From: Promethearchaeota archaeon Loki_b31
GTDB taxonomy: Archaea > Asgardarchaeota > Lokiarchaeia > Sigyniarchaeales > SOKP01
Length of the DNA stretch: 64,000 bases
Direction: 5' to 3'
Assembly: GCA_005222975.1 (NCBI GenBank)
Contig: NJBI01000001.1
Location: 42,571 to 106,570 of the forward strand
Positions 4,340-16,339 of the stretch are shown here, one piece after another. The first letter of the stretch is position 1; every line of letters begins with the position of its first letter. Below the pieces are notes generated by a model. The model was not told the origin of the DNA. It saw only the letters and a list, made by a program, of their open reading frames with translations, and did no database searches. The position numbers were made by a program, and so were the translations under genes.

Positions 4340-4729
4340 TTATTCAGGTAAATAAAACTTACATATAGTACACTGTTTTGCTTTTAATCGCCTATCAGGT
4401 CCGAGAATAATATATTTGCTTTTCATAGCCCCGCCGCATTTTGGACAATTTTTTACAAAGTTCTCTTTTATTGAATCTAAAACCTTCTGGATGCTTTTCT
4501 CTAGCTGAAGTAATTCATTTGCGTTTTCTATTATTTTTTTCGCCGAGATAATGCCAATTCCCTTAATCCATGCTAGCTCTTCGGTTGTAGAGTTTGCGAT
4601 CTCTTCAATTGTTTTCACACCTGCTTTATTGAGGTTTACAGCAGCTATTGGTCCAACACCTCTAACCCGTTCGAGCTCACTAGACATAAAAAACACTTTT
4701 ATATGGATTATTCCACTTGAGAATGACAA
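4340..4729 (-). CDS. Helix-hairpin-helix DNA-binding protein with C-terminal zinc ribbon
   Basis: Two HhH motifs (LERVRGVGPIAAVNLNKAGV, LAWIKGIGIISAKKI) and CPKCGG...CTICK. The true start may be the internal ATG (MSSELERV). Confidence 0.5.
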   Translation of the reverse strand: MSFSSGIIHIKVFFMSSELERVRGVGPIAAVNLNKAGVKTIEEIANSTTEELAWIKGIGIISAKKIIENANELLQLEKSIQKVLDSIKENFVKNCPKCGGAMKSKYIILGPDRRLKAKQCTICKFYLPE

Positions 4730-4861
4730 ATATTACTACTTGAATGAATTAAAAAGAAACTTAACCTACACTAATTTTGAATTTATCTATAATAATAAAT
4801 AATTGCAATACTAAAAGATAAAATTTGAGATGATAAAAAAAAGAAAATATTTTAGTAAAAA

Positions 4862-5584
4862 TTATTTTTCTATTTGACGTCCTACGCCGTAATACATCAA
4901 ACTAGCTCCTAAAAGAGCTAACATCAAGCCTACTACTCCTATTATAGTTCTAAAAGTAGGGATATTTAAAGTATTAGAAATAAAAATTCCATACATAAAG
5001 ATCGCAAGTGCGCAAAATCCGAATATAAAGAATTTCCACTTTTTTTTTAATATCTCATCTTCAAATTTCTTATAAATCTGAAATGATAGATAAAGTGCTG
5101 GTAATATTCCAATAGTTTCGATTACTACAACATATAAGAAGAATGGGACGCTCCAAACGGGGCTCCAGCCAGTTCCTGCATTGAGTGTCACACCAAAACC
5201 TGGAGTGAATAGAAACAAGATCATACAAAACATTGCAATTCCGTAAATAATAAGAATAATTAATTGTTTGCTCGTTGAAATTACTTTTTCAGATTTTAGA
5301 AGAATTAATTCAAAAACTACAATAAATATTGGAGAATAGAAGATAAAAAAGTTAGTGAGAAAGTTTAGCATTAGCACAACAGATTCGTCGGTAAGAGGAG
5401 CATAAATAAAATTTATAATAAATCCAATAGCTGGAGATAAATAAAATCCTGAAAAGATTACATTTAGTCGTTTCCTATCTCTTTTGAGAATTTTGAACGC
5501 CAAAAAAAGGAAAAAAGCACACATAAATCCTTGGGCTCCATATATCGTTATAATACGAGTCAAAGACATATCATAAAGAGTCAT
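4862..5584 (-). CDS. Polytopic membrane protein of unknown function (paralog of 5765..6475)
   Basis: About 7 TM segments. Collinear similarity to the neighbour, e.g. FFLFLAFKILKRDRKRLNVIFSGFYLSPAIGFIINFIYA versus FFLFIAYRILKRELKGPNLILSGFYLSVAFGVIINVIYA, and KKKWKFFIFG versus KKKWKYFLVG. Confidence 0.55.
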   Translation of the reverse strand: MTLYDMSLTRIITIYGAQGFMCAFFLFLAFKILKRDRKRLNVIFSGFYLSPAIGFIINFIYAPLTDESVVLMLNFLTNFFIFYSPIFIVVFELILLKSEKVISTSKQLIILIIYGIAMFCMILFLFTPGFGVTLNAGTGWSPVWSVPFFLYVVVIETIGILPALYLSFQIYKKFEDEILKKKWKFFIFGFCALAIFMYGIFISNTLNIPTFRTIIGVVGLMLALLGASLMYYGVGRQIEK

Positions 5585-6816: not shown

Positions 6817-7001
6817 AAAATTTCAACTCTAAAAAATAAATATTTTTATTTTGGTGTTAAGTTTGTTAATAAATTTAAGAATAATAAGTTAACTTGTTTT
6901 TTATATCTAAAATGTATCCTTAGAATATTTGCTTAGTTTAGTAGTTGATTTATAGGATAATAATATTAGATACTTATCTCATATATATATAGAATTTCAC
7001 T

Positions 7002-7586
7002 CTACTTAGAAAGAATTCTTCCGTAAGCCTTTGCTCGCTCAAATAACTCTGGGTTTAAAAATTCTAATTTGAAATGGATATCGTTTAAAATTTTATCGAA
7101 TACCTCTTTAACATCTCTTTGTAGATTTTGAATTTTAAAACAATATAAAAGTTCGAGTTCTCTTGTTTTTTGGATTAAACTAAATTCATTTATTCTCCTT
7201 TCATTTAGAGGTTTATTTTTTAAGATTAAAAAAGAGTCAATTCCTGCTAAAACAGATATGCCATTGAACATAAAGCGTTGAGAAAATTTGGTATAATTTT
7301 CAATATTAATGTTAATAATCGATTTATCATTGTAAATATTTGCTGCGATTATGATTGCGTCAAATCTCTTAAAGGGAATCCTTTTATTAATTAAATCCTC
7401 AAAACTCTCTGCAAGAATGGCTTTTAAATTTATAGGAATACCTTCAAATAGAAGGAAAAACTTCCAAATTAAGTCTTGCGAAGCAAATTTTAAAGCAATT
7501 TGCTTTAAATAATCTAAAAAAATCCTTTTTTTAGAATCTTCCGTGCCAACAAGACCCAAATTGATGGTATAACTAAATTCTTTCAA
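7002..7586 (-). CDS. Small-GTPase-like protein with degenerate nucleotide-binding motifs (candidate pseudo-GTPase)
   Basis: Collinear with the GTPases at 34098/34850. YTINLGLVGTEDSKKRIFLDYL aligns to YKVIVIGDPSVGKTSLLTKF, FDAIIIAANIYNDKS to ADGMILVYDMTRSS, ISVLAGIDSF to RILIGNKVDL, and DVKEVFDKILNDI to TVKEVFQKIAELV. The P-loop GK[ST], DxxG and NKxD motifs are all lost. Confidence 0.4.
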   Translation of the reverse strand: MKEFSYTINLGLVGTEDSKKRIFLDYLKQIALKFASQDLIWKFFLLFEGIPINLKAILAESFEDLINKRIPFKRFDAIIIAANIYNDKSIININIENYTKFSQRFMFNGISVLAGIDSFLILKNKPLNERRINEFSLIQKTRELELLYCFKIQNLQRDVKEVFDKILNDIHFKLEFLNPELFERAKAYGRILSK

Positions 7587-7682
7587 AACTTTGCTTGTTA
7601 AAAAAAAATAATTAAGGTTCTTAATTTAATAATATAATAAAATAATGCAAATATAAAATATTGATTAAATAATCTTTTCAAA

Positions 7683-8615
7683 ATGTTAATAATTTACGCG
7701 TTATTAATCGTAATGATTATTATCTGGAGTTTCTCATTTGTTCTAGTGGATATTGCACTGGAATTTGTTCCACCTATGTCTATTGCGTTAACTAGGTTTC
7801 TAATAGTATCAATGGTATTTATTATTGTTGATCTATATTTTTTTATTAATCGAAAAAGACAGGTTGATAAATACAACAAGAACAAGAAAAAAGAAAATCT
7901 TCGATACACAAGAAAAGAATGGATATATTTAATTATCGCAAGCTTTTGTGGTATTTTACTTTTCTTTGGTGCTCAATATTCTGCAATAGAATTAATTGGA
8001 CCCTCTTTACCCGCATTTTTCGTGTGCCTTTTATCCCCAGTAGTAATAACAATTTTAGCTTTAATCTTTTTTAAAGAAAAGTTGACTAAGGTTAAAATCC
8101 TGGGTTTTGCTATTGCAACCGTAGGCGGTTTTTTATTAGTTACGGGAGGAGATTTACGAACGCTTACTCCAACAACGCCTAACTTCTTAGGTTATATATT
8201 CGCTCTTATGACGCCAATAACATGGGCGATTTATTCAATAATAACAAAAAGAATTATAAGAAATAAACCAAATTTCAAAACCTTAAAATACATTGCTTAT
8301 TTTGGGACTATAGAGTTGTTCATTATCGTAATATTAAATAAGGAATTGCTCATTTTTATCCAGAATTTTTTTAATATTTATGTTTTTCTAACAGGAATAT
8401 ATTTAGGTATTGGCTGTTATATTATCGGGTATTTTATCTGGCAGAAATCACAAAAGGAGCTTAAATCTTCAAAAGGGGCTTCATTTCTCTATATTGAGCC
8501 GTTTCTAACGCTCATCTTTTCAATTATCTTAAACCGATCTGAGACAATACTGATATGGAACATTATCGGAGGTATCATTGTTCTAGTAGCTGTATTAGTA
8601 ATAAATTATAAGTAA
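7683..8615 (+). CDS. EamA/DMT superfamily transporter
   Basis: 10-TM layout with two EamA-like halves (IWSFSFVLVDIALEFVPPMSIALTRFLI; ITWAIYSIITKR). Confidence 0.7.
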   Translation: MLIIYALLIVMIIIWSFSFVLVDIALEFVPPMSIALTRFLIVSMVFIIVDLYFFINRKRQVDKYNKNKKKENLRYTRKEWIYLIIASFCGILLFFGAQYSAIELIGPSLPAFFVCLLSPVVITILALIFFKEKLTKVKILGFAIATVGGFLLVTGGDLRTLTPTTPNFLGYIFALMTPITWAIYSIITKRIIRNKPNFKTLKYIAYFGTIELFIIVILNKELLIFIQNFFNIYVFLTGIYLGIGCYIIGYFIWQKSQKELKSSKGASFLYIEPFLTLIFSIILNRSETILIWNIIGGIIVLVAVLVINYK

Positions 8616-8633
8616 AAAAGATTATGAACTGAG

Positions 8634-9329
8634 ATGACCAAAAGAATACTTTTTATTGGTGATAGCATCACTGAAGGAAAAATAGGAATCGGGTATATTG
8701 ATATAATTCAACATTATTTCCCTCAATTTCAGTGTAAAAATTATGGACGCGGTGGTGATACCTTATCTGGAGTCTTTACGAGACTTTTAAAAATTTTAAA
8801 AACACAGACAGAAACATATGACATTATAGTAATTGAAGCTGGTCTCAACGATCTTTTCTTACCTTTTGTTAAAATGAAGTGGAAATTCACAAGTATTAGA
8901 AAAGTAACTCCATTAAACAAGATAAAAGACTTTTATGATAATGGATTAAAAACGATAAGTTTACATAGCAAAGCAAAGATAATATTAACTACTTTAAGTT
9001 GCTTGGGAGAAAACATAAGTTCTCCATTAAACCAAAAAAGAAGATTAGTAAATAATCAGATTAAGGAAATTGGTTCTAAACATGGTGCATATATAGCAGA
9101 TGTAAGTTCATTCTTTGATAAGATCTTAAGTAAAAGCATTTCGAGTTATAATCTCATAGATCATCCTTTAAACTTAGTTTTCGATTATTTTAGATCAAAA
9201 AGAATGAACTGGGTAGAAAAAATAAGCAGGAAAAGACGGCTAGTGTTGACTATAGATGGTGGACACCTCAATAGCAAAGGCGCATTAATTTATGCTATTG
9301 TAATATCACGAATTTTAGATTTGCTTTAA
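8634..9329 (+). CDS. SGNH/GDSL family hydrolase (lipase/esterase-like)
   Basis: Block I ILFIGDSITEG, block II GRGGDT, block III EAGLNDL, block V DGGHLN. Confidence 0.75.
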   Translation: MTKRILFIGDSITEGKIGIGYIDIIQHYFPQFQCKNYGRGGDTLSGVFTRLLKILKTQTETYDIIVIEAGLNDLFLPFVKMKWKFTSIRKVTPLNKIKDFYDNGLKTISLHSKAKIILTTLSCLGENISSPLNQKRRLVNNQIKEIGSKHGAYIADVSSFFDKILSKSISSYNLIDHPLNLVFDYFRSKRMNWVEKISRKRRLVLTIDGGHLNSKGALIYAIVISRILDLL

Positions 9330-9389
9330 CCTTGAAAAAAATGAAGATTTTGATTAAAGGAAAATAGTTTGAGGATAAGAATAGAGAGA

Positions 9390-10826
9390 TTACAAATTCC
9401 TTGAAGTAATAGATTTTAATTCATTAGAAAGTGTGTCATCAATAGGTTTTAAAGAAATTTTCTCAGCGAGTTTAGTCGCTTGCTCCTTTGCTCTTTTTCG
9501 TGCAGACTTAGAGCCATTCTCTTTCCAAGCGTCCCGAGACATGCGATCTATTACCGGACTAACTATAAAAAGCTCCTTTCTAAAAAGCTTTAAAGTCGTT
9601 GGATGCGAAAGTAATTCCTCTTTTTCATTGTAGTCCCTTAAAATTTCAGAAGCGAATGGAGTACCGTGATCTTCTACTCCTCTTAGGAGTCTTTTTACCA
9701 TTCCTACTATTTCGTTATCAATTACTAATTTTTCAATGCTTTGAGTGGATTCAAAATCTAACATGCCAGGTCCCGAAATCATATTAATGCCAGCAAGTCC
9801 AGCTAAAAGTGCTCCCATACCTCCTTCGAATCCTGCTTGAGCATCTGGAACTTTGGAGTCACTAAGACTCATGTAAGCATGAGTGGGCATTTTTAGAAAT
9901 TTTCCTATCTCGACATCCCCCAAGTTAATCATCATTGTTTCAATAGCTCCCATTGGAGTTGTACCTTGCTTCATATCTAATATTGCGGGTGATCCACCCC
10001 ATATCAAAGGAGCTCCAGTTTTTGCTAACTGTCCAATTGCAACTCCTGCTAAGCATTCTGCAGAGTGTTGTGTTATTGAACCAATCAAGCTTATTGGAGC
10101 GCTAGCTCCTGCTAACGGCATAGACACAAACTCAGATGGTATCATACTCTTGGCGGCATCGATAAGTGATTGAGAAGTCAGGTCTGACCACTTCAGCGGG
10201 GGACTAGGACAAACATCGAAGATCGCTAAAGGTTTCCTTGCTAAATCATCTTCTGATAATCGACAACTTAACAATAATTCTCTCATAATTGAAAAACTTT
10301 CCTTTCGAAACGTCCCGGTTACAACTGGTTTATAGCAATTAGATAATGCGATATATAACCTATGCCAATCTTGTGCGTGGTTGGGGACATCTTGATAAAC
10401 TATAGCAGTGCTTTGAGCTTCGATATACTTTAAATGTTCTACTACCTTTGAAAAACGTACGAAATCTTTTTCGAACGCGTTTCTAATCGTTCCTGTATTT
10501 TCATCTAGATATAAGATCGCTGCTGAGCCAGGATCGTAATGAACATTATCGTTCGCTAAAGTAATATGCTCTTTTCCCTCTCTATCAAATAATTTAATCT
10601 CATCCGGAACAGTTTTGAGACATCTATCTACTAAATCAGAAGGAATGAAGTATCGAGAACCCTCGTGATTAACTCCTTCGCTGTTAAATAATTCTTTAGC
10701 GTCCTCATTTTCTAAAAATATTCCTAGATTTTCTAAAATATCTTTAGCCTCATTGAATATCTTTATTTTATGATCCTCATCTAAGACATTAATTCTTGGT
10801 CTTAAAATTCCCATCCTAACATACAC
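9390..10826 (-). CDS. MttB-superfamily (trimethylamine methyltransferase family) substrate:corrinoid methyltransferase, non-pyrrolysine type
   Basis: Uninterrupted 478 aa with no in-frame TAG. The N-terminal pattern LDEDHKIKIFNEAKDILENLGIFLENEDAKELF...IPSDLVDRCLKTVP and overall length match MttB/MtgB-like proteins. Confidence 0.8.
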   Translation of the reverse strand: MYVRMGILRPRINVLDEDHKIKIFNEAKDILENLGIFLENEDAKELFNSEGVNHEGSRYFIPSDLVDRCLKTVPDEIKLFDREGKEHITLANDNVHYDPGSAAILYLDENTGTIRNAFEKDFVRFSKVVEHLKYIEAQSTAIVYQDVPNHAQDWHRLYIALSNCYKPVVTGTFRKESFSIMRELLLSCRLSEDDLARKPLAIFDVCPSPPLKWSDLTSQSLIDAAKSMIPSEFVSMPLAGASAPISLIGSITQHSAECLAGVAIGQLAKTGAPLIWGGSPAILDMKQGTTPMGAIETMMINLGDVEIGKFLKMPTHAYMSLSDSKVPDAQAGFEGGMGALLAGLAGINMISGPGMLDFESTQSIEKLVIDNEIVGMVKRLLRGVEDHGTPFASEILRDYNEKEELLSHPTTLKLFRKELFIVSPVIDRMSRDAWKENGSKSARKRAKEQATKLAEKISLKPIDDTLSNELKSITSRNL

Positions 10827-10838
10827 GCTCTCATTTTG

Positions 10839-11726
10839 TTAATTCTCTAGTGAATCTATAAGTTTTCTTATTTCTTTTATAGTTGCTGGAGACGTACCAC
10901 AGCACCCTCCCACGATTTTGGCACCTATTTGAATAATTTCGTGAATATCGCTTACGAAATCCTTTATTGGTTGGTCGTAAACGGCTCTATTGTTTTGATC
11001 GATTCTTGGTTGACCCGCGTTAGGTTTTGCCGATATGGGTTTATTAGTAAGCTCTTTTAGTTCTTTTATTAATCCTATCATTTCATCGCTTCCTAATGTA
11101 CAATTCGCTCCAATCACATCAACATTTCTATCCTCTTGTATTCGCACGCACTTTTCTAAAGAATTGCCCATAATGGTAAAAAAACCCCTTTTTGTTTTTT
11201 TGTATGTCATTGAGCTTATAATGGGTTTTTTTGAAATCTCTCTTATCGCTTTTATCGCAGCTTCCATTTCTTCAATGTCTGAGATAGTCTCGATATGCCA
11301 GAGATCTACTCCTTGTTCTAAAAATTTTACCTGTTTTACATAACTGGAAACCCATTGTTCGGCGGTTGCTTTTCCTACTGGAGGTTTAAATACACCAGAT
11401 GGGCCAATATCGCCTACAATTAAACGATTGGGAGGGCAAGCTCTTTTTATATTTTTTAAGGCGCTCTCATTTAACTCTTTAATTTGGCTTTCAATTTTAT
11501 AGCCTTGCAAATTTAAAAAGCTAGATCCAAAAGTACTTGTTTGGCACATATCTGCGCCTGCGTCGTAATAAGATTTATGTATCTCAAAAATTAAATCTGG
11601 TTGTTCGATATTAAGGGTATCGGGAAGTCTTCCTGGCGTGATTCCATGTTTAAATATCTCTGACCCCATTCCTCCGTCAAATAATATGATTTTCGAACCA
11701 TTTTTTAACCAATCGTGGAATAACAT
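10839..11726 (-). CDS. Homocysteine S-methyltransferase domain protein (MetH Hcy-binding-domain type, Zn-dependent thiol methyltransferase)
   Basis: FDGGMGSEI at the N-terminus. Zn-ligand cysteines in IGANCTLG and VGGCCGTSP. Confidence 0.8.
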   Translation of the reverse strand: MLFHDWLKNGSKIILFDGGMGSEIFKHGITPGRLPDTLNIEQPDLIFEIHKSYYDAGADMCQTSTFGSSFLNLQGYKIESQIKELNESALKNIKRACPPNRLIVGDIGPSGVFKPPVGKATAEQWVSSYVKQVKFLEQGVDLWHIETISDIEEMEAAIKAIREISKKPIISSMTYKKTKRGFFTIMGNSLEKCVRIQEDRNVDVIGANCTLGSDEMIGLIKELKELTNKPISAKPNAGQPRIDQNNRAVYDQPIKDFVSDIHEIIQIGAKIVGGCCGTSPATIKEIRKLIDSLEN

Positions 11727-11752
11727 AGCAATTTACCTCAAATAAGCGTTTT

Positions 11753-12400
11753 TTAAATTTTTAAAAGGTTCTTGACTAGATTAACAGCTTCTACGGCGCT
11801 ACCAGCAAATCCATCTGCTTTGCACTCATCTACCCACGCGTTAGAAACTGGAGCACCCCCAAGTATAACTTTGAATTTGTCTCGGATGCCTTTAGATTCG
11901 AGTATTTCTATTATCTTTTTTTGGCCGATCATAGTTGTAGTCAATAGAGCAGAAACTCCAATGATATCTGCATTCTTTTCAACAGCAATTTCGATAATTC
12001 TTTCAGCTGGAACGTCAGCGCCTAGATCATAAACTTCAAAACCGTTGGCACTCAACATTGTAGCGACAATTGTTTTACCTATTGAGTGAATGTCTCCTTC
12101 TATTGTTGCAATTACCACTTTTCCATTCGAGATTCTATCTCTCTCTGTTTCTATATGTGGAAAAAGAATCTGCATAGACTCTTGCATAATAGTCCCACCA
12201 AGCATTAATTCCGGCAGAAAAAATTCTCCTTCGTCCCATAAAGCCCCTATTTTACGGATCCCCGCTCCAAAACCTTTCTCTATTACTTCAAGAAGATTCA
12301 TATTTTCTTGAATTGCTTTATTGGCCAATTCAATAGTTTTTTCTTTATCAAGACTTACGATTGCTTCAGATATTTCTTCATAAAATTTATCATTAGACAC
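11753..12400 (-). CDS. Cobalamin-binding corrinoid protein (MtxC/MetH B12-domain type)
   Basis: B12-binding cap helices followed by a Rossmann domain. It carries GDIHSIGK (DxHxxG), SALLTTT (SxL) and ILGGAP (GG). Confidence 0.85.
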   Translation of the reverse strand: MSNDKFYEEISEAIVSLDKEKTIELANKAIQENMNLLEVIEKGFGAGIRKIGALWDEGEFFLPELMLGGTIMQESMQILFPHIETERDRISNGKVVIATIEGDIHSIGKTIVATMLSANGFEVYDLGADVPAERIIEIAVEKNADIIGVSALLTTTMIGQKKIIEILESKGIRDKFKVILGGAPVSNAWVDECKADGFAGSAVEAVNLVKNLLKI

Positions 12401-12576
12401 AAAAATCTCATCTAAAAACTTAATTAGTTATAATTGTAAAAATATCATGGTTAATTAATTAAAATATCGAAAAACTATTTGTATGAAACGAGGATTTGTT
12501 CAAAAAACAGATAGAAAATCCTAAAAATAAAAATAAGAAAAAAGAAATTTTTTTTTAATGATTCAATTAATTCAGT

Positions 12577-13284
12577 TTATGTAGGAGGGTTATTAAGTAA
12601 AAGCCAGACTACTATGATAATCGGTATAATAATGATTGCTAATAAACTAATTAAATAAACCTTTATTAATTTTTTAGCTCGCTTGCTAAATTCTGGCGTT
12701 ATTTCTTCTCGTAACCGATCTTTATTAATGTTTGTATTAGATGCTAAAAAATCATTTAGCCTTTTAGCGTACTTAATTGTATTAGATTCCTCTTTTGGGC
12801 CAGTTATGTACATCGGATTTTTTGTACGAAAATTCAAACCTAAACACTCCCATTCAACGCTTCCATACTTTCCTCGGCTTCTTAAGCGTTTAAAAACATC
12901 AAAACGGTCTATATCCTCTAATTTGAACTTTTTGTGCTTAACCCGCATATACGACCAATAAGCTTCGTAAATTAAGAGATTTTGTTGAGCGTCAATTTTA
13001 AAAACGATTAAAGCCGTTCTTTGTAGCCATCCTGTGATAAGGGTACTAAAAACTAATGTACCTAAAAAAATGTGTGTCCAAAATAGGGCAATATCAGTGA
13101 GCTCAGTCCCAATATTATTTCTATTTTTTTCCCAAATAAATATCATAAAAACCCATAAGATTGCAAATGCTCCAGAACCGATTAAAAGTCTATACCACCA
13201 AGTTTTTACAAAGAGTTTGATTCTTGGTAAATTATCTTTTCCTACAGTTTCATCGTACTCTTTCGTTGAACTATTATCATCCAT
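12577..13284 (-). CDS. Hypothetical membrane protein (2 N-terminal TM, soluble middle domain, C-terminal TM)
   Basis: Long ORF with clear hydrophobic segments (LLIGSGAFAILWVFMIFIW; IFLGTLVFSTLITGWL; VYLISLLAIIIIPIIIVVWLLL). No recognisable motif. Confidence 0.5.
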   Translation of the reverse strand: MDDNSSTKEYDETVGKDNLPRIKLFVKTWWYRLLIGSGAFAILWVFMIFIWEKNRNNIGTELTDIALFWTHIFLGTLVFSTLITGWLQRTALIVFKIDAQQNLLIYEAYWSYMRVKHKKFKLEDIDRFDVFKRLRSRGKYGSVEWECLGLNFRTKNPMYITGPKEESNTIKYAKRLNDFLASNTNINKDRLREEITPEFSKRAKKLIKVYLISLLAIIIIPIIIVVWLLLNNPPT

Positions 13285-13559
13285 CGATATCAGTATCTTT
13301 ATATAGTTTTAAATTAAAATTTCGCGTTATAATTGAAATAATCAATTATATTGTTTTAATTATCAAGAGTATATATATTTTACTCGCCCACATTCTTCCC
13401 AATTTCAGAAATTAAAAGAAAAAATACACTTGGAGAATAAAAGGAAAAAGTACGCTGAATTATTATTCCATTATTATTAGGTTTTTTAAGAAATAAAAAT
13501 ATAAATTCTTACAATATATAAATTTTAAAACTTAATTATCAAATAATTTGATATTGTAA

Positions 13560-13564
13560 AGGTG
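13560..13564 (+). promoter_or_regulatory. Shine-Dalgarno-like AGGTG 7 nt upstream of ATG 13572
   Basis: gtaaAGGTGttttataATG. Confidence 0.35.
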
Positions 13565-13571
13565 TTTTATA

Positions 13572-14060
13572 ATGTCTAGAAGATATTACGCAAAAGGTAA
13601 GAAGACTTATGCTAAAGACCAGAGTTTTACACAGGACAATGTCGGGGAAGAGAAAGAACGCTTTCTCATCAGTATTGATTTAATGAGCTTAAAAACTTTA
13701 AAAGATTACGACATAATGGGGTGGCGTGGCGAGTTCTATTTCAAAGTGGATGGCCCTAAGGTCTTTAAGGCTAGATTCCCAAATAAGGGAACAATAAAGC
13801 TTCAAAGAAATCAAAACTTTACATCTAAAGCGGATATGAATGTATGGAGTCAGTTCAAAACTGTTAAAGCAGGAAGGGATGCTGTAGAAAGGATTAAAGT
13901 AATATTGAGAGAGCAGGACCATTTAAAGAAGGACTCAACAATCGCAGAAGAAGAATATGAAATAGTTCTTCCTTCCAAAACGCGGTATGTTATTTTACAG
14001 GACGATAAAAAACGGACTAAAGCAAAACTACGAATTCAGGCTTCAAGAACAAGATATTAA
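13572..14060 (+). CDS. Hypothetical basic protein
   Basis: 162-aa ORF with a good SD. No recognisable motif. Confidence 0.5.
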   Translation: MSRRYYAKGKKTYAKDQSFTQDNVGEEKERFLISIDLMSLKTLKDYDIMGWRGEFYFKVDGPKVFKARFPNKGTIKLQRNQNFTSKADMNVWSQFKTVKAGRDAVERIKVILREQDHLKKDSTIAEEEYEIVLPSKTRYVILQDDKKRTKAKLRIQASRTRY

Positions 14061-14203
14061 ACAAAAAATATTTTTTTATTCTATTTTTCATTACAGCTTT
14101 TATTTAAAACAATTTATTTCTTTTTTTAATTTCATAATTTTTGATGGTTAAGTTAAGGAAAAAATAAAAAAAAAAATAGTGAGTTTAATAGAATTGTACG
14201 ACG

Positions 14204-15598
14204 CTATAGCTTTTTTTCTTGCGATCTATATATAGCAAATGCTCCAATAACAAATGAAATAGCTATTCCAATCTGGACAAAACCCCAAAGCATACCTCCG
14301 AATATATCATCTAAAGCTAAAGATATAATTAAAATCGCTATCTCGAAAACGGCAAGGTAATTTAGAATAGCTAAAAATTTGTTTTCTATTGCTGACGATT
14401 TTGTATTTAGTGTGTTCCTCTGTCTATTAAGCGTTTTCCTGATTCTGGAGATAACATCGTCAGTTTGCTTCGAAAATTTAAATCCATCTAATTTATCTAT
14501 CATTTCGTTAAACATGCTCGTTTTAAAAGTGCTAGTAAATAATAAGCGACTAATTTTGGAGATTATTATATCTTTATTTAATTCAAGAATTATTCTGTTG
14601 AGTTCTGTTTCTAATTTTTCTAATCTATCGATTTTATCCATCAAAGTTAGGCTTTCTTCTTTAGCTCTAGTTTCTGAGATGACTTTATCGAATTTATCTG
14701 CTACAATTAGTATGTTTTCCATATGCATGAGGATTAAAAACCTTTGAACATTGCCAACTTCTGGACCATAAAGCGTATCGATAAGTAAGTTTTTCATAGA
14801 ATTTGGATCCATAAGACCTGGTCCCGGGATTATTACATTTCCCGCGTGAGTAATCATCACGAATTCGTCTAAATATGGAGATAAGTTTTTAAGGTTAATT
14901 TGATCTCGATACGCCACAGGATCTAGTTCTCGATATTTATCCGTTCTTAAAGTAAGCCCTATTGAATATCGCGCATTCTTACCAATATTATTTCCAATAA
15001 AGCGATAATCCACTCTGTTAAAGTCGGGTTTTGCGTCCCAAATAAGCCAAGTATGGTGCCACGGTTCTAGCGAAGATTCTAATTTTGCTTTTTCTGGAAA
15101 ATTTCCTTTTTTTAATAACATTGTAATATTTTCTCTTATTTCTACGAATTTTTCTGTAATAGGTCTTCCGGTGCTTTCCAGAATCATGTTTGAGGGTTGG
15201 GATATTTCTATAAAATCCTCAATCTTGTGGTAATTATCGAACAATAATTCGCAATGGATTACTAAAACTGAACCATAATGAATGTGCCCTTCCAATCTAA
15301 TTTTTCCAAACATGTGTGGTACTGTAGCGCAAGAAAATCTATCCGACCTGCCGATCTTAAAGCAAACGGGGGCAAAGTTCACAGATTGACTTGAAATCCA
15401 CTTTAATGGTTGGCTACACTTTTTTGCTTGTCCGGGAACTTCGATTTTACATCGATAATCTTTATATAGTTTGAGAGAGCCTTCTTTTTCTAAATACTTT
15501 CTTACTTCTGGTAACTCAAAATATAGTCCTAACTCATAAAATTTCCAAAAAACTAGAGTAACTTTAAAAATATACTCTTCTTCAGTTGAGATTGTCAT
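14204..15598 (-). CDS. Hypothetical protein: large soluble domain, coiled coil, C-terminal 2-TM hairpin
   Basis: 464-aa ORF. The C-terminus reads ...LEKLETELNRIILEL... then LAILNYLAVFEIAILIISLAL and WGFVQIGIAISFVIGAFAIY. The overall layout resembles CorA or DUF155, but no GMN motif is present. Confidence 0.5.
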   Translation of the reverse strand: MTISTEEEYIFKVTLVFWKFYELGLYFELPEVRKYLEKEGSLKLYKDYRCKIEVPGQAKKCSQPLKWISSQSVNFAPVCFKIGRSDRFSCATVPHMFGKIRLEGHIHYGSVLVIHCELLFDNYHKIEDFIEISQPSNMILESTGRPITEKFVEIRENITMLLKKGNFPEKAKLESSLEPWHHTWLIWDAKPDFNRVDYRFIGNNIGKNARYSIGLTLRTDKYRELDPVAYRDQINLKNLSPYLDEFVMITHAGNVIIPGPGLMDPNSMKNLLIDTLYGPEVGNVQRFLILMHMENILIVADKFDKVISETRAKEESLTLMDKIDRLEKLETELNRIILELNKDIIISKISRLLFTSTFKTSMFNEMIDKLDGFKFSKQTDDVISRIRKTLNRQRNTLNTKSSAIENKFLAILNYLAVFEIAILIISLALDDIFGGMLWGFVQIGIAISFVIGAFAIYRSQEKKL

Positions 15599-15718
15599 AT
15601 TTATTTCCTTGAAAAGTTTTATCTAATCTAAATATATTATAAATTTAAAATATTCTTCTATTTGGATGATCATTACAAACATTTATTATACTTTTATGTA
15701 AATTATGGTGAGTTATGA

Positions 15719-16339
15719 ATGGTTAATAAAGAAGCAAACTCAAAAAAATTGGAAATAATAGTTCAAATCGCAAGTTTAAGAGATTCTCCAGGGATTCATA
15801 ACGCACTTAAGCAAAACTTAATTGAAATACTCGATTTTGACGAGATTCCAGACGAACAAAGAAAAGAATTAGAAGATCAAGGCTTCCTGAGAAAAGAAGT
15901 TGACGAAGATTTTTACACCCAACTTATTCAAGATGTTAACAAGAAGGTTTATGTTGCAAAAAATAAACGAGGAGATGTCATTGGTTTCGCAAGCATATAT
16001 AATAACGAGAATAACATAAAAACGATTAGGAAAACTTTGCAAAATCTCCATATTAAAGATAAAGAAATTTTAGATTTGCTCGTTAACGAAAAAAGAAAAT
16101 TCGCTTATTTGGACCAAATTAGCATCGTACCTGAATTTAAACGCAAAGGCGTTGGGACGGCCATTCTGGAGAAAGCGTTGGTTGAAATGAACATTCCTTT
16201 AGTTGCGTTCATAGTAAAACTACCTTTAATGAATAAAGCGTCCGCTCTATGGCACGAGTATGTTGGTTTTGAACTTGTAGGTACTGGAGATGGTGATTAT
16301 AAAGGGAAAAAGTTTGAATGGTTGATATATATTAAATAG
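15719..16339 (+). CDS. GNAT family N-acetyltransferase
   Basis: Acetyl-CoA motif A: QISIVPEFKRKGVGTAILEKAL. Confidence 0.7.
   Translation: MVNKEANSKKLEIIVQIASLRDSPGIHNALKQNLIEILDFDEIPDEQRKELEDQGFLRKEVDEDFYTQLIQDVNKKVYVAKNKRGDVIGFASIYNNENNIKTIRKTLQNLHIKDKEILDLLVNEKRKFAYLDQISIVPEFKRKGVGTAILEKALVEMNIPLVAFIVKLPLMNKASALWHEYVGFELVGTGDGDYKGKKFEWLIYIK

Follow-up and report, generated by a model that had tools for sequence, protein, structure and literature searches.

The stretch of DNA analysed here, 64,000 nucleotides of contig NJBI01000001.1 from Promethearchaeota archaeon Loki_b31 (hereafter the window), carries an operon of three minus-strand genes which encode, from first to last, a corrinoid protein of 215 aa (11753-12400), a stand-alone homocysteine-type zinc thiol methyltransferase of 295 aa, referred to below as HcyMT (10839-11726), and a non-pyrrolysine methyltransferase of the MttB superfamily of 478 aa (9390-10826). 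The three genes had been picked out in an earlier note on the same DNA and were confirmed as open reading frames separated by gaps of 26 nt (corrinoid protein to HcyMT) and 12 nt (HcyMT to MttB homolog). Domain composition, conservation and the gene content of the host genome suggest, with a probability that we put at roughly 0.65, that the operon encodes a three-protein cobamide-dependent methionine synthase without a folate or pterin module, and in its own genome and genus it is probably the main methionine synthase.

The three proteins of the operon

The product of the middle gene matches a single Pfam family, PF02574 (217 bits, E 5e-64), and gave no Pterin_bind match in the Pfam search, which upholds the assignment of this protein to the homocysteine-type methyltransferases made in the earlier note. 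Its best relative of solved structure is the homocysteine (Hcy) domain of T. maritima MetH (1q7m, E 9e-52), with which it aligns end to end, including the GxNC and GGCCGT motifs. In an alignment with nine homologs, D17-G18 (DGG), E146 (IET), C209 (GANC) and the pair C275-C276 (GGCCG) are invariant, the Hcy-domain cysteines noticed earlier being among them; we take the three cysteines to be zinc ligands and D17 and E146 to be homocysteine contacts. HcyMT is proposed to be a methyl-corrinoid:homocysteine methyltransferase, i.e., the Hcy module of MetH as a separate protein. More than 100 relatives at 66-99% identity are found in public data, those with names coming from metagenome-assembled genomes (MAGs) of Lokiarchaeota, Hermodarchaeota, Thorarchaeota or Promethearchaeota, with one exception labelled Nanopelagicaceae, and these relatives carry the JGI name '5-methyltetrahydrofolate--homocysteine methyltransferase'.

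The corrinoid protein consists of a PF02607 cap and a PF02310 Rossmann B12 domain (Pfam) and has all of the motifs previously attributed to it, namely DxHxxG (D103-I-H-S-I-G108), SxL (S150-A-L) and GG (G181-G182), the first of which reads as the His-on motif. Among the NCBIfam models it reaches 216.8 bits with TIGR02370, above the cut-off of 215.3, as compared with 207 bits for MtbC, 206 bits for MtgC and 150 bits for metH, and by these scores it would belong to the type cognate to methylamine methyltransferases and not to the MetH type.

The last gene encodes a protein whose sole Pfam family is PF06253 (246 bits). Its reading frame is free of in-frame stops, Leu321 occupies the pyrrolysine position, and the match to TIGR02369, the equivalog model of pyrrolysine MttB, lies at 360 bits and thus under the cut-off of 525, all of which bears out the earlier description of an uninterrupted non-pyrrolysine protein; an alternative start at the ATG at 10814 is possible. 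Among solved structures the protein is equidistant to MtgB of D. hafniense (2qne, 9yce, ~4e-54) and MttB of M. barkeri (7xcl, 2e-52). In a tree of the superfamily, in which the characterised references are MtgB and MttB as taken from PDB alignments and in which outgroups are few and branches long, the MttB homologs of the Asgard operon and those of a cassette found in Acidobacteriota form one clade (100/99), set on a long stem, to which MtgB, MttB and the Asgard paralogs do not belong. No matching NCBIfam model places the protein with MtpB, MtcB, MtyB or MthB. We propose that it is a donor:corrinoid methyltransferase of a clade distinct from both MttB and MtgB.

The residues through which MtgB contacts glycine betaine, Y97, R312, H348 and F356, have been established by mutagenesis and a ligand-bound structure, and R312 is conserved also in MtcB, MtpB, MthB and MtyB (PMC13080624). 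These four positions align with S101, H316, S351 and E359 of the MttB homolog, none of the four being kept, and the replacing residues do not vary among 18 Asgard orthologs. The pocket of 80 bacterial relatives reads Ser (79/80), Gln (80/80), Leu (72/80), Ser (80/80) and Glu (79/80), and a Ser/His(Gln)/Leu/Ser/Glu signature, with His316 in Asgard archaea and Gln in bacteria, is common to 100 sequences. Because all four MtgB contacts are replaced, including the arginine shared by MtcB, MtpB, MthB and MtyB, a carboxylated betaine bound as in MtgB is unlikely to be the donor, and the betaines of the known kind among the candidate donors named in the earlier note are to that extent disfavoured. 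It may be speculated that the invariant His/Gln and Glu serve in the protonation or positioning of a non-quaternary methylamine or of some other compound.

An Rfam match to PYLIS_3 ('pyrrolysine insertion sequence mttB'; 48.7 bits against a gathering score of 38) was obtained at 9767-9864 of the window (minus strand), inside the coding sequence of the MttB homolog and beginning right after the Leu321 codon. PYLIS_3 is also matched in TAG-less MttB genes of bacterial cassettes (L165 5948-6045, L170 5948-6045 and L178 5943-6042), and the match probably represents conserved coding sequence (SDSKVPDAQAG...) and not a functional element.

Conservation in Asgard archaea and the bacterial cassette

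The order corrinoid protein, HcyMT, MttB homolog is found in 34 of 34 Asgard loci, three of which run into a contig end with just two of the genes visible, at identities of 63-96% and in MAGs labelled Loki-, Hermod-, Hod- and Thor-. The corrinoid protein itself is 63-96% identical across the orthologous Asgard loci and the MttB homolog 73-96%, and in the nearest public loci, from MAGs named 'Promethearchaeota archaeon', all three proteins are 92-96% identical to those of the window. Because the same order is kept across 34 loci, the juxtaposition of these genes is not a matter of chance; the operon is strongly conserved and probably has a housekeeping role. A MetH-type activation gene is absent from all of the annotated Asgard loci. 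In one Asgard sub-lineage (L006 2163-5182; L007, L026-L029), genes for an MFS_2 (GPH-type) transporter and for a distant MttB paralog (24% identity, pocket G/Y/L/G/D) lie directly upstream of the three genes, an arrangement in which two donor enzymes would draw on one corrinoid protein.

A pattern search seeded with the MttB clade found it in at least 590 bacterial genomes. Among the matches listed, the hosts include Acidobacteriota, Planctomycetota, Gemmatimonadota, WOR-3, Zixibacteria, Marinimicrobia, Aminicenantes, Ignavibacteria, Bacteroidota, Cloacimonadota, Fibrobacterota, TA06, Eisenbacteria and others, and their proteins share 64-81% identity with the query, which comes from Acidobacteriota. 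Of the best 80 bacterial loci, 50 have the genes in the order MttB, a PF02965-like activation protein of ~235 aa, corrinoid protein and HcyMT, and a further four lack the activation gene but have the rest of the set, while the remainder mostly contain only MttB, in part with complete flanks, or are truncated by contig ends. Several lone members of the clade (L133, L139, L145, L148, L157, L161 and L209; 65-73% identity to the Acidobacteriota query) have 5-kb flanks with no gene for a corrinoid protein, HcyMT or activation protein nearby; their partners may be encoded elsewhere, or these proteins may have a second role.

The genes directly upstream of 66 bacterial cassettes do not belong to a common family (the most frequent one occurs 3 times), and transporters for betaine or choline are missing from the 25 families listed there. 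The bacterial cassette looks self-contained. A match of any kind to a MetH query that includes the pterin domain was obtained beside the cassette in 1 of 80 loci, and no riboswitch of the S-adenosylmethionine (SAM) or cobalamin type was found 5' of 13 bacterial cassettes. In a Phycisphaerae MAG (L149), two Acido-Lenti-1 RNA motifs, at 4685-4730 (minus strand, 66 bits) and 4840-4886 (plus strand, 41 bits), are found just upstream of the gene for the cassette MttB (start 5001).

In the window, the corrinoid protein gene is preceded by an AT-rich spacer of 176 nt (12401-12576, minus strand) which, from a reading of its sequence, is presumed to be the promoter region. A search of window positions 7000-16000 against Rfam at E<=1 found no riboswitch, whether of the SAM, the cobalamin or any other type, and a scan for sigma-70 promoters and terminators gave results at chance level, the sigma-70 consensus not being meaningful for an archaeal host. 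On the other side, a plus-strand gene for an EamA/DMT-family transporter (7683-8615; PF00892) converges on the 3' end of the operon, with a plus-strand gene for a GDSL-like esterase/acylhydrolase (8634-9329; PF13472 and PF00657) between the two. The transporter scores under the cut-off of TIGR00950, a carboxylate/amino acid/amine transporter model, and adjoins the operon in 16 of 34 Asgard loci, including the Thor-labelled L009 (57% identity), and the esterase does so in 13 loci, a Loki/Hermod subset, at 54-86% identity. A functional tie between transporter and operon, either for import of the donor or for traffic of methionine, homocysteine or SAM, is conceivable.

Beyond the spacer, and in many genomes adjoining the corrinoid protein gene in divergent orientation, lies a gene for a very basic protein of 162 aa (13572-14060, plus strand), which is 79-96% identical across Loki-, Hermod- and Thor-labelled MAGs, a conservation above that of the operon proteins, and which has no match in Pfam or NCBIfam. 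It was considered as a missing partner for reactivation of the corrinoid and set aside, its AlphaFold2 model being all-beta with a mean pLDDT of 46 and hence unusable.

Methionine synthesis in the host and competing explanations

The host genome is a 3.5-Mb MAG, 92% complete. In the whole assembly, the operon HcyMT is the only PF02574 gene, and neither a MetE-type domain PF01717 nor a fused MetH was found, which answers the question raised earlier of whether a full-length metH or metE is present. The MetH activation domain PF02965 was not detected in the whole genome even at E<=0.1, a tblastn search with the activation proteins of Acidobacteriota and of Promethearchaeum syntrophicum MK-D1 gave at best E 0.19, and no RamA-type activase (PF14574) was found in the genome either. 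The single PF00809 (Pterin_bind) gene is DHPS-like by sequence motif, and its neighbour reads like an F420 glutamyl ligase. Since no second PF02574 gene and no gene of PF01717, PF02965 or PF14574 was found and the lone Pterin_bind gene is DHPS-like, the only homocysteine methylase recognisable in this genome is that of the operon.

Across 301 Asgard genomes, PF02574 is present in 111, nearly always as a frame of ~295-330 aa. An MttB match was obtained in ~102 of the 105 Asgard genomes with a stand-alone PF02574 frame and in none of four sister-family genomes having only a fused frame (810-840 aa). MK-D1 has no MttB homolog; on its chromosome (L093 4456-8394), genes for MTHFR, a Met_synt_B12-like protein and a fused Hcy+Pterin_bind+B12 MetH (795 aa) stand in a row, and the Hcy domain of the latter is placed beside an Oscillospiraceae sequence in a mostly Bacillota clade (98/94). 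This nesting among Bacillota sequences suggests that a bacterial MetH was acquired by MK-D1 and replaced the Asgard system. In the own genus of the host, the stand-alone HcyMT (PF02574) is found in 26 of 28 genomes and a PF01717 match in none of the 28. In its family, for which 69 genomes were sampled, weak matches to the MetE catalytic domain, with a length of ~345 aa that corresponds to core-MetE-type enzymes, were obtained in 16 of 18 genomes lacking PF02574 versus 17 of 51 having it (Fisher p = 6e-5, a value that overstates independence, as the genomes are related and not phylogenetically independent). Complementarity of this kind is to be expected of a methionine synthase for which MetH or core-MetE can stand in. 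Together with the conservation of the operon and the link to an activation protein in bacteria, it gives good comparative support to the proposal of the earlier note that the operon may be a split, MetH-like methionine synthase.

A mechanism can be derived from what is known of the chemistry of MetH and the MttB/MtgB systems. The TIM barrel of the MttB-clade protein would bind a methyl donor other than a carboxylated betaine held in the manner of MtgB and would methylate Co(I) of the corrinoid protein, after which the zinc enzyme HcyMT would activate homocysteine as a thiolate and accept the methyl group from methyl-Co(III), giving methionine and Co(I). From this scheme we infer which way methyl groups flow, that homocysteine accepts them and what the physiological role of the operon would be. 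For reactivation of Co(II), the bacterial cassette would rely on the MetH-type activation protein that it carries, a gene which, like RamA, is missing from the Asgard genome. We would advance only tentatively the wider claim that the three genes are the principal, and in many lineages sole, methionine synthase in Asgard archaea of the Loki-, Hermod-, Hod- and Thor-type and that the clade represents a new MttB substrate class, with methyl groups bypassing the folate module of MetH; it would imply pyrrolysine-independent use of a non-betaine donor, which might be a simple methylamine, another small methylated compound or a methylated pterin.

Several points weigh against a folate-independent methionine synthase, in addition to the relatedness of the genomes in which co-occurrence was counted. 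The searches with PF02965, PF14574 and tblastn found no reductive or AdoMet (SAM)-dependent reactivation partner in the host genome, and it would be odd for a housekeeping enzyme to rely on an environmental methylamine. The missing part of the 92%-complete MAG could harbour a MetE or MetH. In the tree of Hcy domains, HcyMT of the Asgard operon and HcyMT of the bacterial cassette form separate clades (100/99 and 100/98, respectively) that do not come out as sisters; the partnership may thus have more than one origin, the Asgard and bacterial cassettes having been assembled independently, or be too old to be resolved. Finally, MtrH-family genes elsewhere in the host genome could feed the same corrinoid protein from a methylated pterin.

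This last point leads to the alternative that survives best, although we consider it unlikely, namely an arrangement similar to MtgBCDE of roseobacters in which the corrinoid protein, HcyMT and an orphan MtrH form the methionine synthase, while the MttB homolog, in a catabolic or supplementary role, feeds in methyl groups of which most exit through MtrH to the C1 pool or the Wood-Ljungdahl pathway instead of reaching homocysteine. The host assembly (G000) does contain two orphan MtrH-family (PF02007) genes, at G000:C15:17738-18652 and C13:65724-66605, with no corrinoid gene nearby, which we take to be of the MtgA type, as well as two MTHFR-like genes on contig C57. MtgC of Ruegeria serves both MtgB and MtgE via MtgD, and the second MttB paralog and MFS transporter found upstream of the corrinoid gene in some Asgard loci resemble a system for substrate scavenging. 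However, MtrH is absent from the operon and its surroundings in all of the Asgard loci annotated or scanned, the bacterial cassette is likewise without an adjoining pterin methyltransferase, the MetH query having matched in just one of the 80 loci, and HcyMT and MttB are adjacent everywhere here, whereas mtgE of roseobacters typically lies apart from mtgB. The MtrH proteins could instead partner two pairs of corrinoid and URO-D-family genes (C63:15142-17147 and C14:19921-21623), as in systems of the O-demethylase type. One of these pairs lies ~0.9 kb downstream of a gene for a beta-eliminating lyase, and a fourth corrinoid protein gene stands alone on C66; taken with the MtrH genes, the corrinoid/URO-D pairs point to a more extensive network of corrinoid methyl transfer, which may be of the O-demethylase or methylthiol type.

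It is rather improbable that the donor is a pterin after all, the barrel of the MttB clade binding methyl-tetrahydromethanopterin (CH3-H4MPT) or methyl-tetrahydrofolate (CH3-THF) in place of the folate domain of MetH, which would make the operon an ordinary pterin-dependent synthase with a different barrel. The very strong conservation of the clade across bacterial phyla and within Asgard archaea (in the ranges given above), the invariant pocket, which is polar and neither aromatic nor basic, and the lack of a recurring family immediately upstream of the cassette, which fits an endogenous and universal donor, are in keeping with this explanation; moreover, MttB, MeTr and MetH's folate domain are all TIM barrels by which a methyl group is presented to a corrinoid (PMC9842639). 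Pfam nevertheless detects PF06253 only, with no pterin-binding signature, no member of the MttB family is known to use a pterin, and Ca. Electryoneota hold both the cassette and a full MetH, which argues for a different donor.

Still less credible, and in our view very improbable, is another acceptor or a reversed flow, the PF02574 protein methylating a different thiol (sulfide, a cofactor thiol or mercaptopropionate), an idea raised also in the earlier note, or passing the methyl group of a methylthio compound to the corrinoid with the MttB homolog as the exit: PF02574 proteins do use varied donors (BHMT, MmuM) and the URO-D-type thiol methylases of methanogens run in both directions, but Asp17, Glu146 and the three cysteines are invariant and aligned with the Hcy domain of MetH, the complementarity with MetH and core-MetE and the activation protein of the bacterial cassette point to methionine synthesis, and we know of no methyl transfer from a thioether to Co(I) by a PF02574 fold. 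A folate-independent, three-protein methionine synthase is thus the explanation that we prefer.

Apart from the operon, the host genome contains two other MttB-like stretches, one with a nonsense codon and one a C-terminal fragment near a contig end. The former is a paralog on contig C14 (13142-14659, plus strand; locus L002) that is 28% identical to the operon MttB and has a corrinoid protein gene and a URO-D-family gene ~6.5 kb away; it carries an in-frame TAA at a Trp (VDVW-P-ND) that is conserved in six orthologs from sister genomes. Recoding of this TAA was considered and rejected, as it replaces a conserved Trp, and the gene is probably a pseudogene (nonsense mutation) or the product of an assembly error. 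The latter is an open reading frame of 237 aa (C81:9575-10288, minus strand; locus L004), with two CxxC pairs in the N-terminal part and ~130 residues of the MttB family in the C-terminal part, located near the end of a 10.5-kb contig, which may represent a gene cut short or else a small fusion of a new kind.

Relation to known systems and significance

Homocysteine methylation of the kind proposed here is best viewed against the characterised MttB-type systems. In agreement with the literature, the earlier note had stated that non-pyrrolysine systems pass the methyl group to THF through MtgA and that methanogens pass it to coenzyme M (CoM) through URO-D-type enzymes. MtgB/MtgC/MtgA of D. hafniense and MttB/MttC of Methanosarcina resemble the operon in that an enzyme of the MttB fold loads a cognate corrinoid protein, but their second methyltransferase is MtgA (to THF) or a URO-D-type CoM methylase, whereas here it is a zinc enzyme of the Hcy type; in the MttB homolog itself, pyrrolysine is replaced by Leu321 and the equivalents of Y97, R312, H348 and F356 are missing. 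With MetH, as represented by T. maritima (1q7m) and the fused form of MK-D1, the operon has in common homologous Hcy and B12 modules and the same proposed second half-reaction, but the PF00809 folate and PF02965 activation modules are absent, the parts are separate polypeptides, and an MttB-family barrel would serve for the first half-reaction.

The closest parallel is a cluster for an MttB homolog, HcyMT, a corrinoid protein and an activation protein described in Ca. Electryoneota and 'diverse bacteria', for which methionine synthesis from an unknown donor was proposed as a bioinformatic hypothesis only (Williams et al. 2022, Environ Microbiol, PMC9324843). In both, a PF02574 protein on its own and a separate corrinoid protein accompany an MttB homolog of the same clade (100/99) and pocket type, with no pterin module, and the same function has been proposed for both. 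They differ in that the host here is an archaeon and the order is corrinoid protein, HcyMT, MttB instead of MttB, activation protein, corrinoid protein, HcyMT; the PF02965-like activation gene is missing from the Asgard cluster and from the host genome, His316 stands in place of the bacterial Gln, and HcyMT of the Asgard operon stands as a clade by itself, outside that of the bacterial cassette. Furthermore, the operon is apparently the sole methionine synthase in its own genus, whereas Electryoneota also have MetH.

Another modular system has been proven genetically in Phaeobacter and Ruegeria, where MtgE (the Hcy module), MtgC (corrinoid) and MtgD (pterin) constitute a methionine synthase and such split parts can replace MetH in Ruegeria (PMC12478193). 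MtgC is shared with the glycine-betaine enzyme MtgB, mtgE is usually not located beside mtgB, and MtgD is essential (PMC12478193; bioRxiv 2025.12.19.695462). MtgBCDE, which in Ruegeria pomeroyi, Phaeobacter inhibens and S. meliloti serves both as glycine-betaine demethylase and as a split methionine synthase, is, like the Asgard operon, modular and cobalamin-dependent, with an MttB-family donor enzyme, a separate corrinoid protein and a separate PF02574 Hcy module. Unlike the operon, it depends for both of its functions on MtgD, which links the corrinoid to THF; in the Asgard operon there is no pterin methyltransferase, the MttB homolog has none of the four glycine-betaine contacts, the three genes are adjacent and the corrinoid protein is methylamine-cognate by NCBIfam. 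The split MetH of Price et al. from 2018 is reportedly to be grouped with MtgBCDE. Core-MetE enzymes of the MesA/MesB type are said (see also PMC12478193) to be folate-independent synthases that take the methyl group from methylcobalamin or corrinoid proteins; like the operon, they would make methionine from a methyl-corrinoid, and they are its apparent alternative in sister Asgard genera, but they belong to PF01717 instead of PF02574 and have no adjoining MttB-type loader.

As for Asgard archaea themselves, MttB-like and MtbC-like genes have been described near MtrH in Atabeyarchaeia and Freyarchaeia, with no mention of a homocysteine module (PMC11291895). In the literature, no paper was found on the three-gene Asgard form and no experiment on any form of the cassette. 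The characterisation of the operon as an under-described wiring of the MttB family consequently holds in part: it stands for the Asgard form, while the bacterial four-gene form was published together with the same hypothesis in 2022 (PMC9324843) and the genetics of MtgBCDE followed in 2025 (PMC12478193). The Asgard operon is an archaeal, three-gene and activation-less variant of a published, hypothesised kind.

A methionine synthase supplies the cell with methionine and, through SAM, with nearly all of its methyl groups. If the function proposed here is true, it would constitute a third architecture of methionine synthase, beside MetH and MetE/Mes, in much of uncultured anaerobic diversity, including many Asgard archaea, which are the closest archaeal relatives of eukaryotes. 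The label '5-methyltetrahydrofolate--homocysteine methyltransferase' would lead metabolic reconstructions to score these genomes as having a folate-dependent MetH, which is probably wrong, and methionine synthesis is likely to be mis-annotated in this way across Asgard archaea and many uncultured bacterial phyla. Replacement by a Bacillota-like MetH in MK-D1, as suggested above, would show that the function is exchangeable. Knowledge of the donor would extend the MttB superfamily by a substrate class, and would bear on the dependence of these organisms on cobamides, on the cycling of methylated compounds in sediments and on what is needed for their cultivation.

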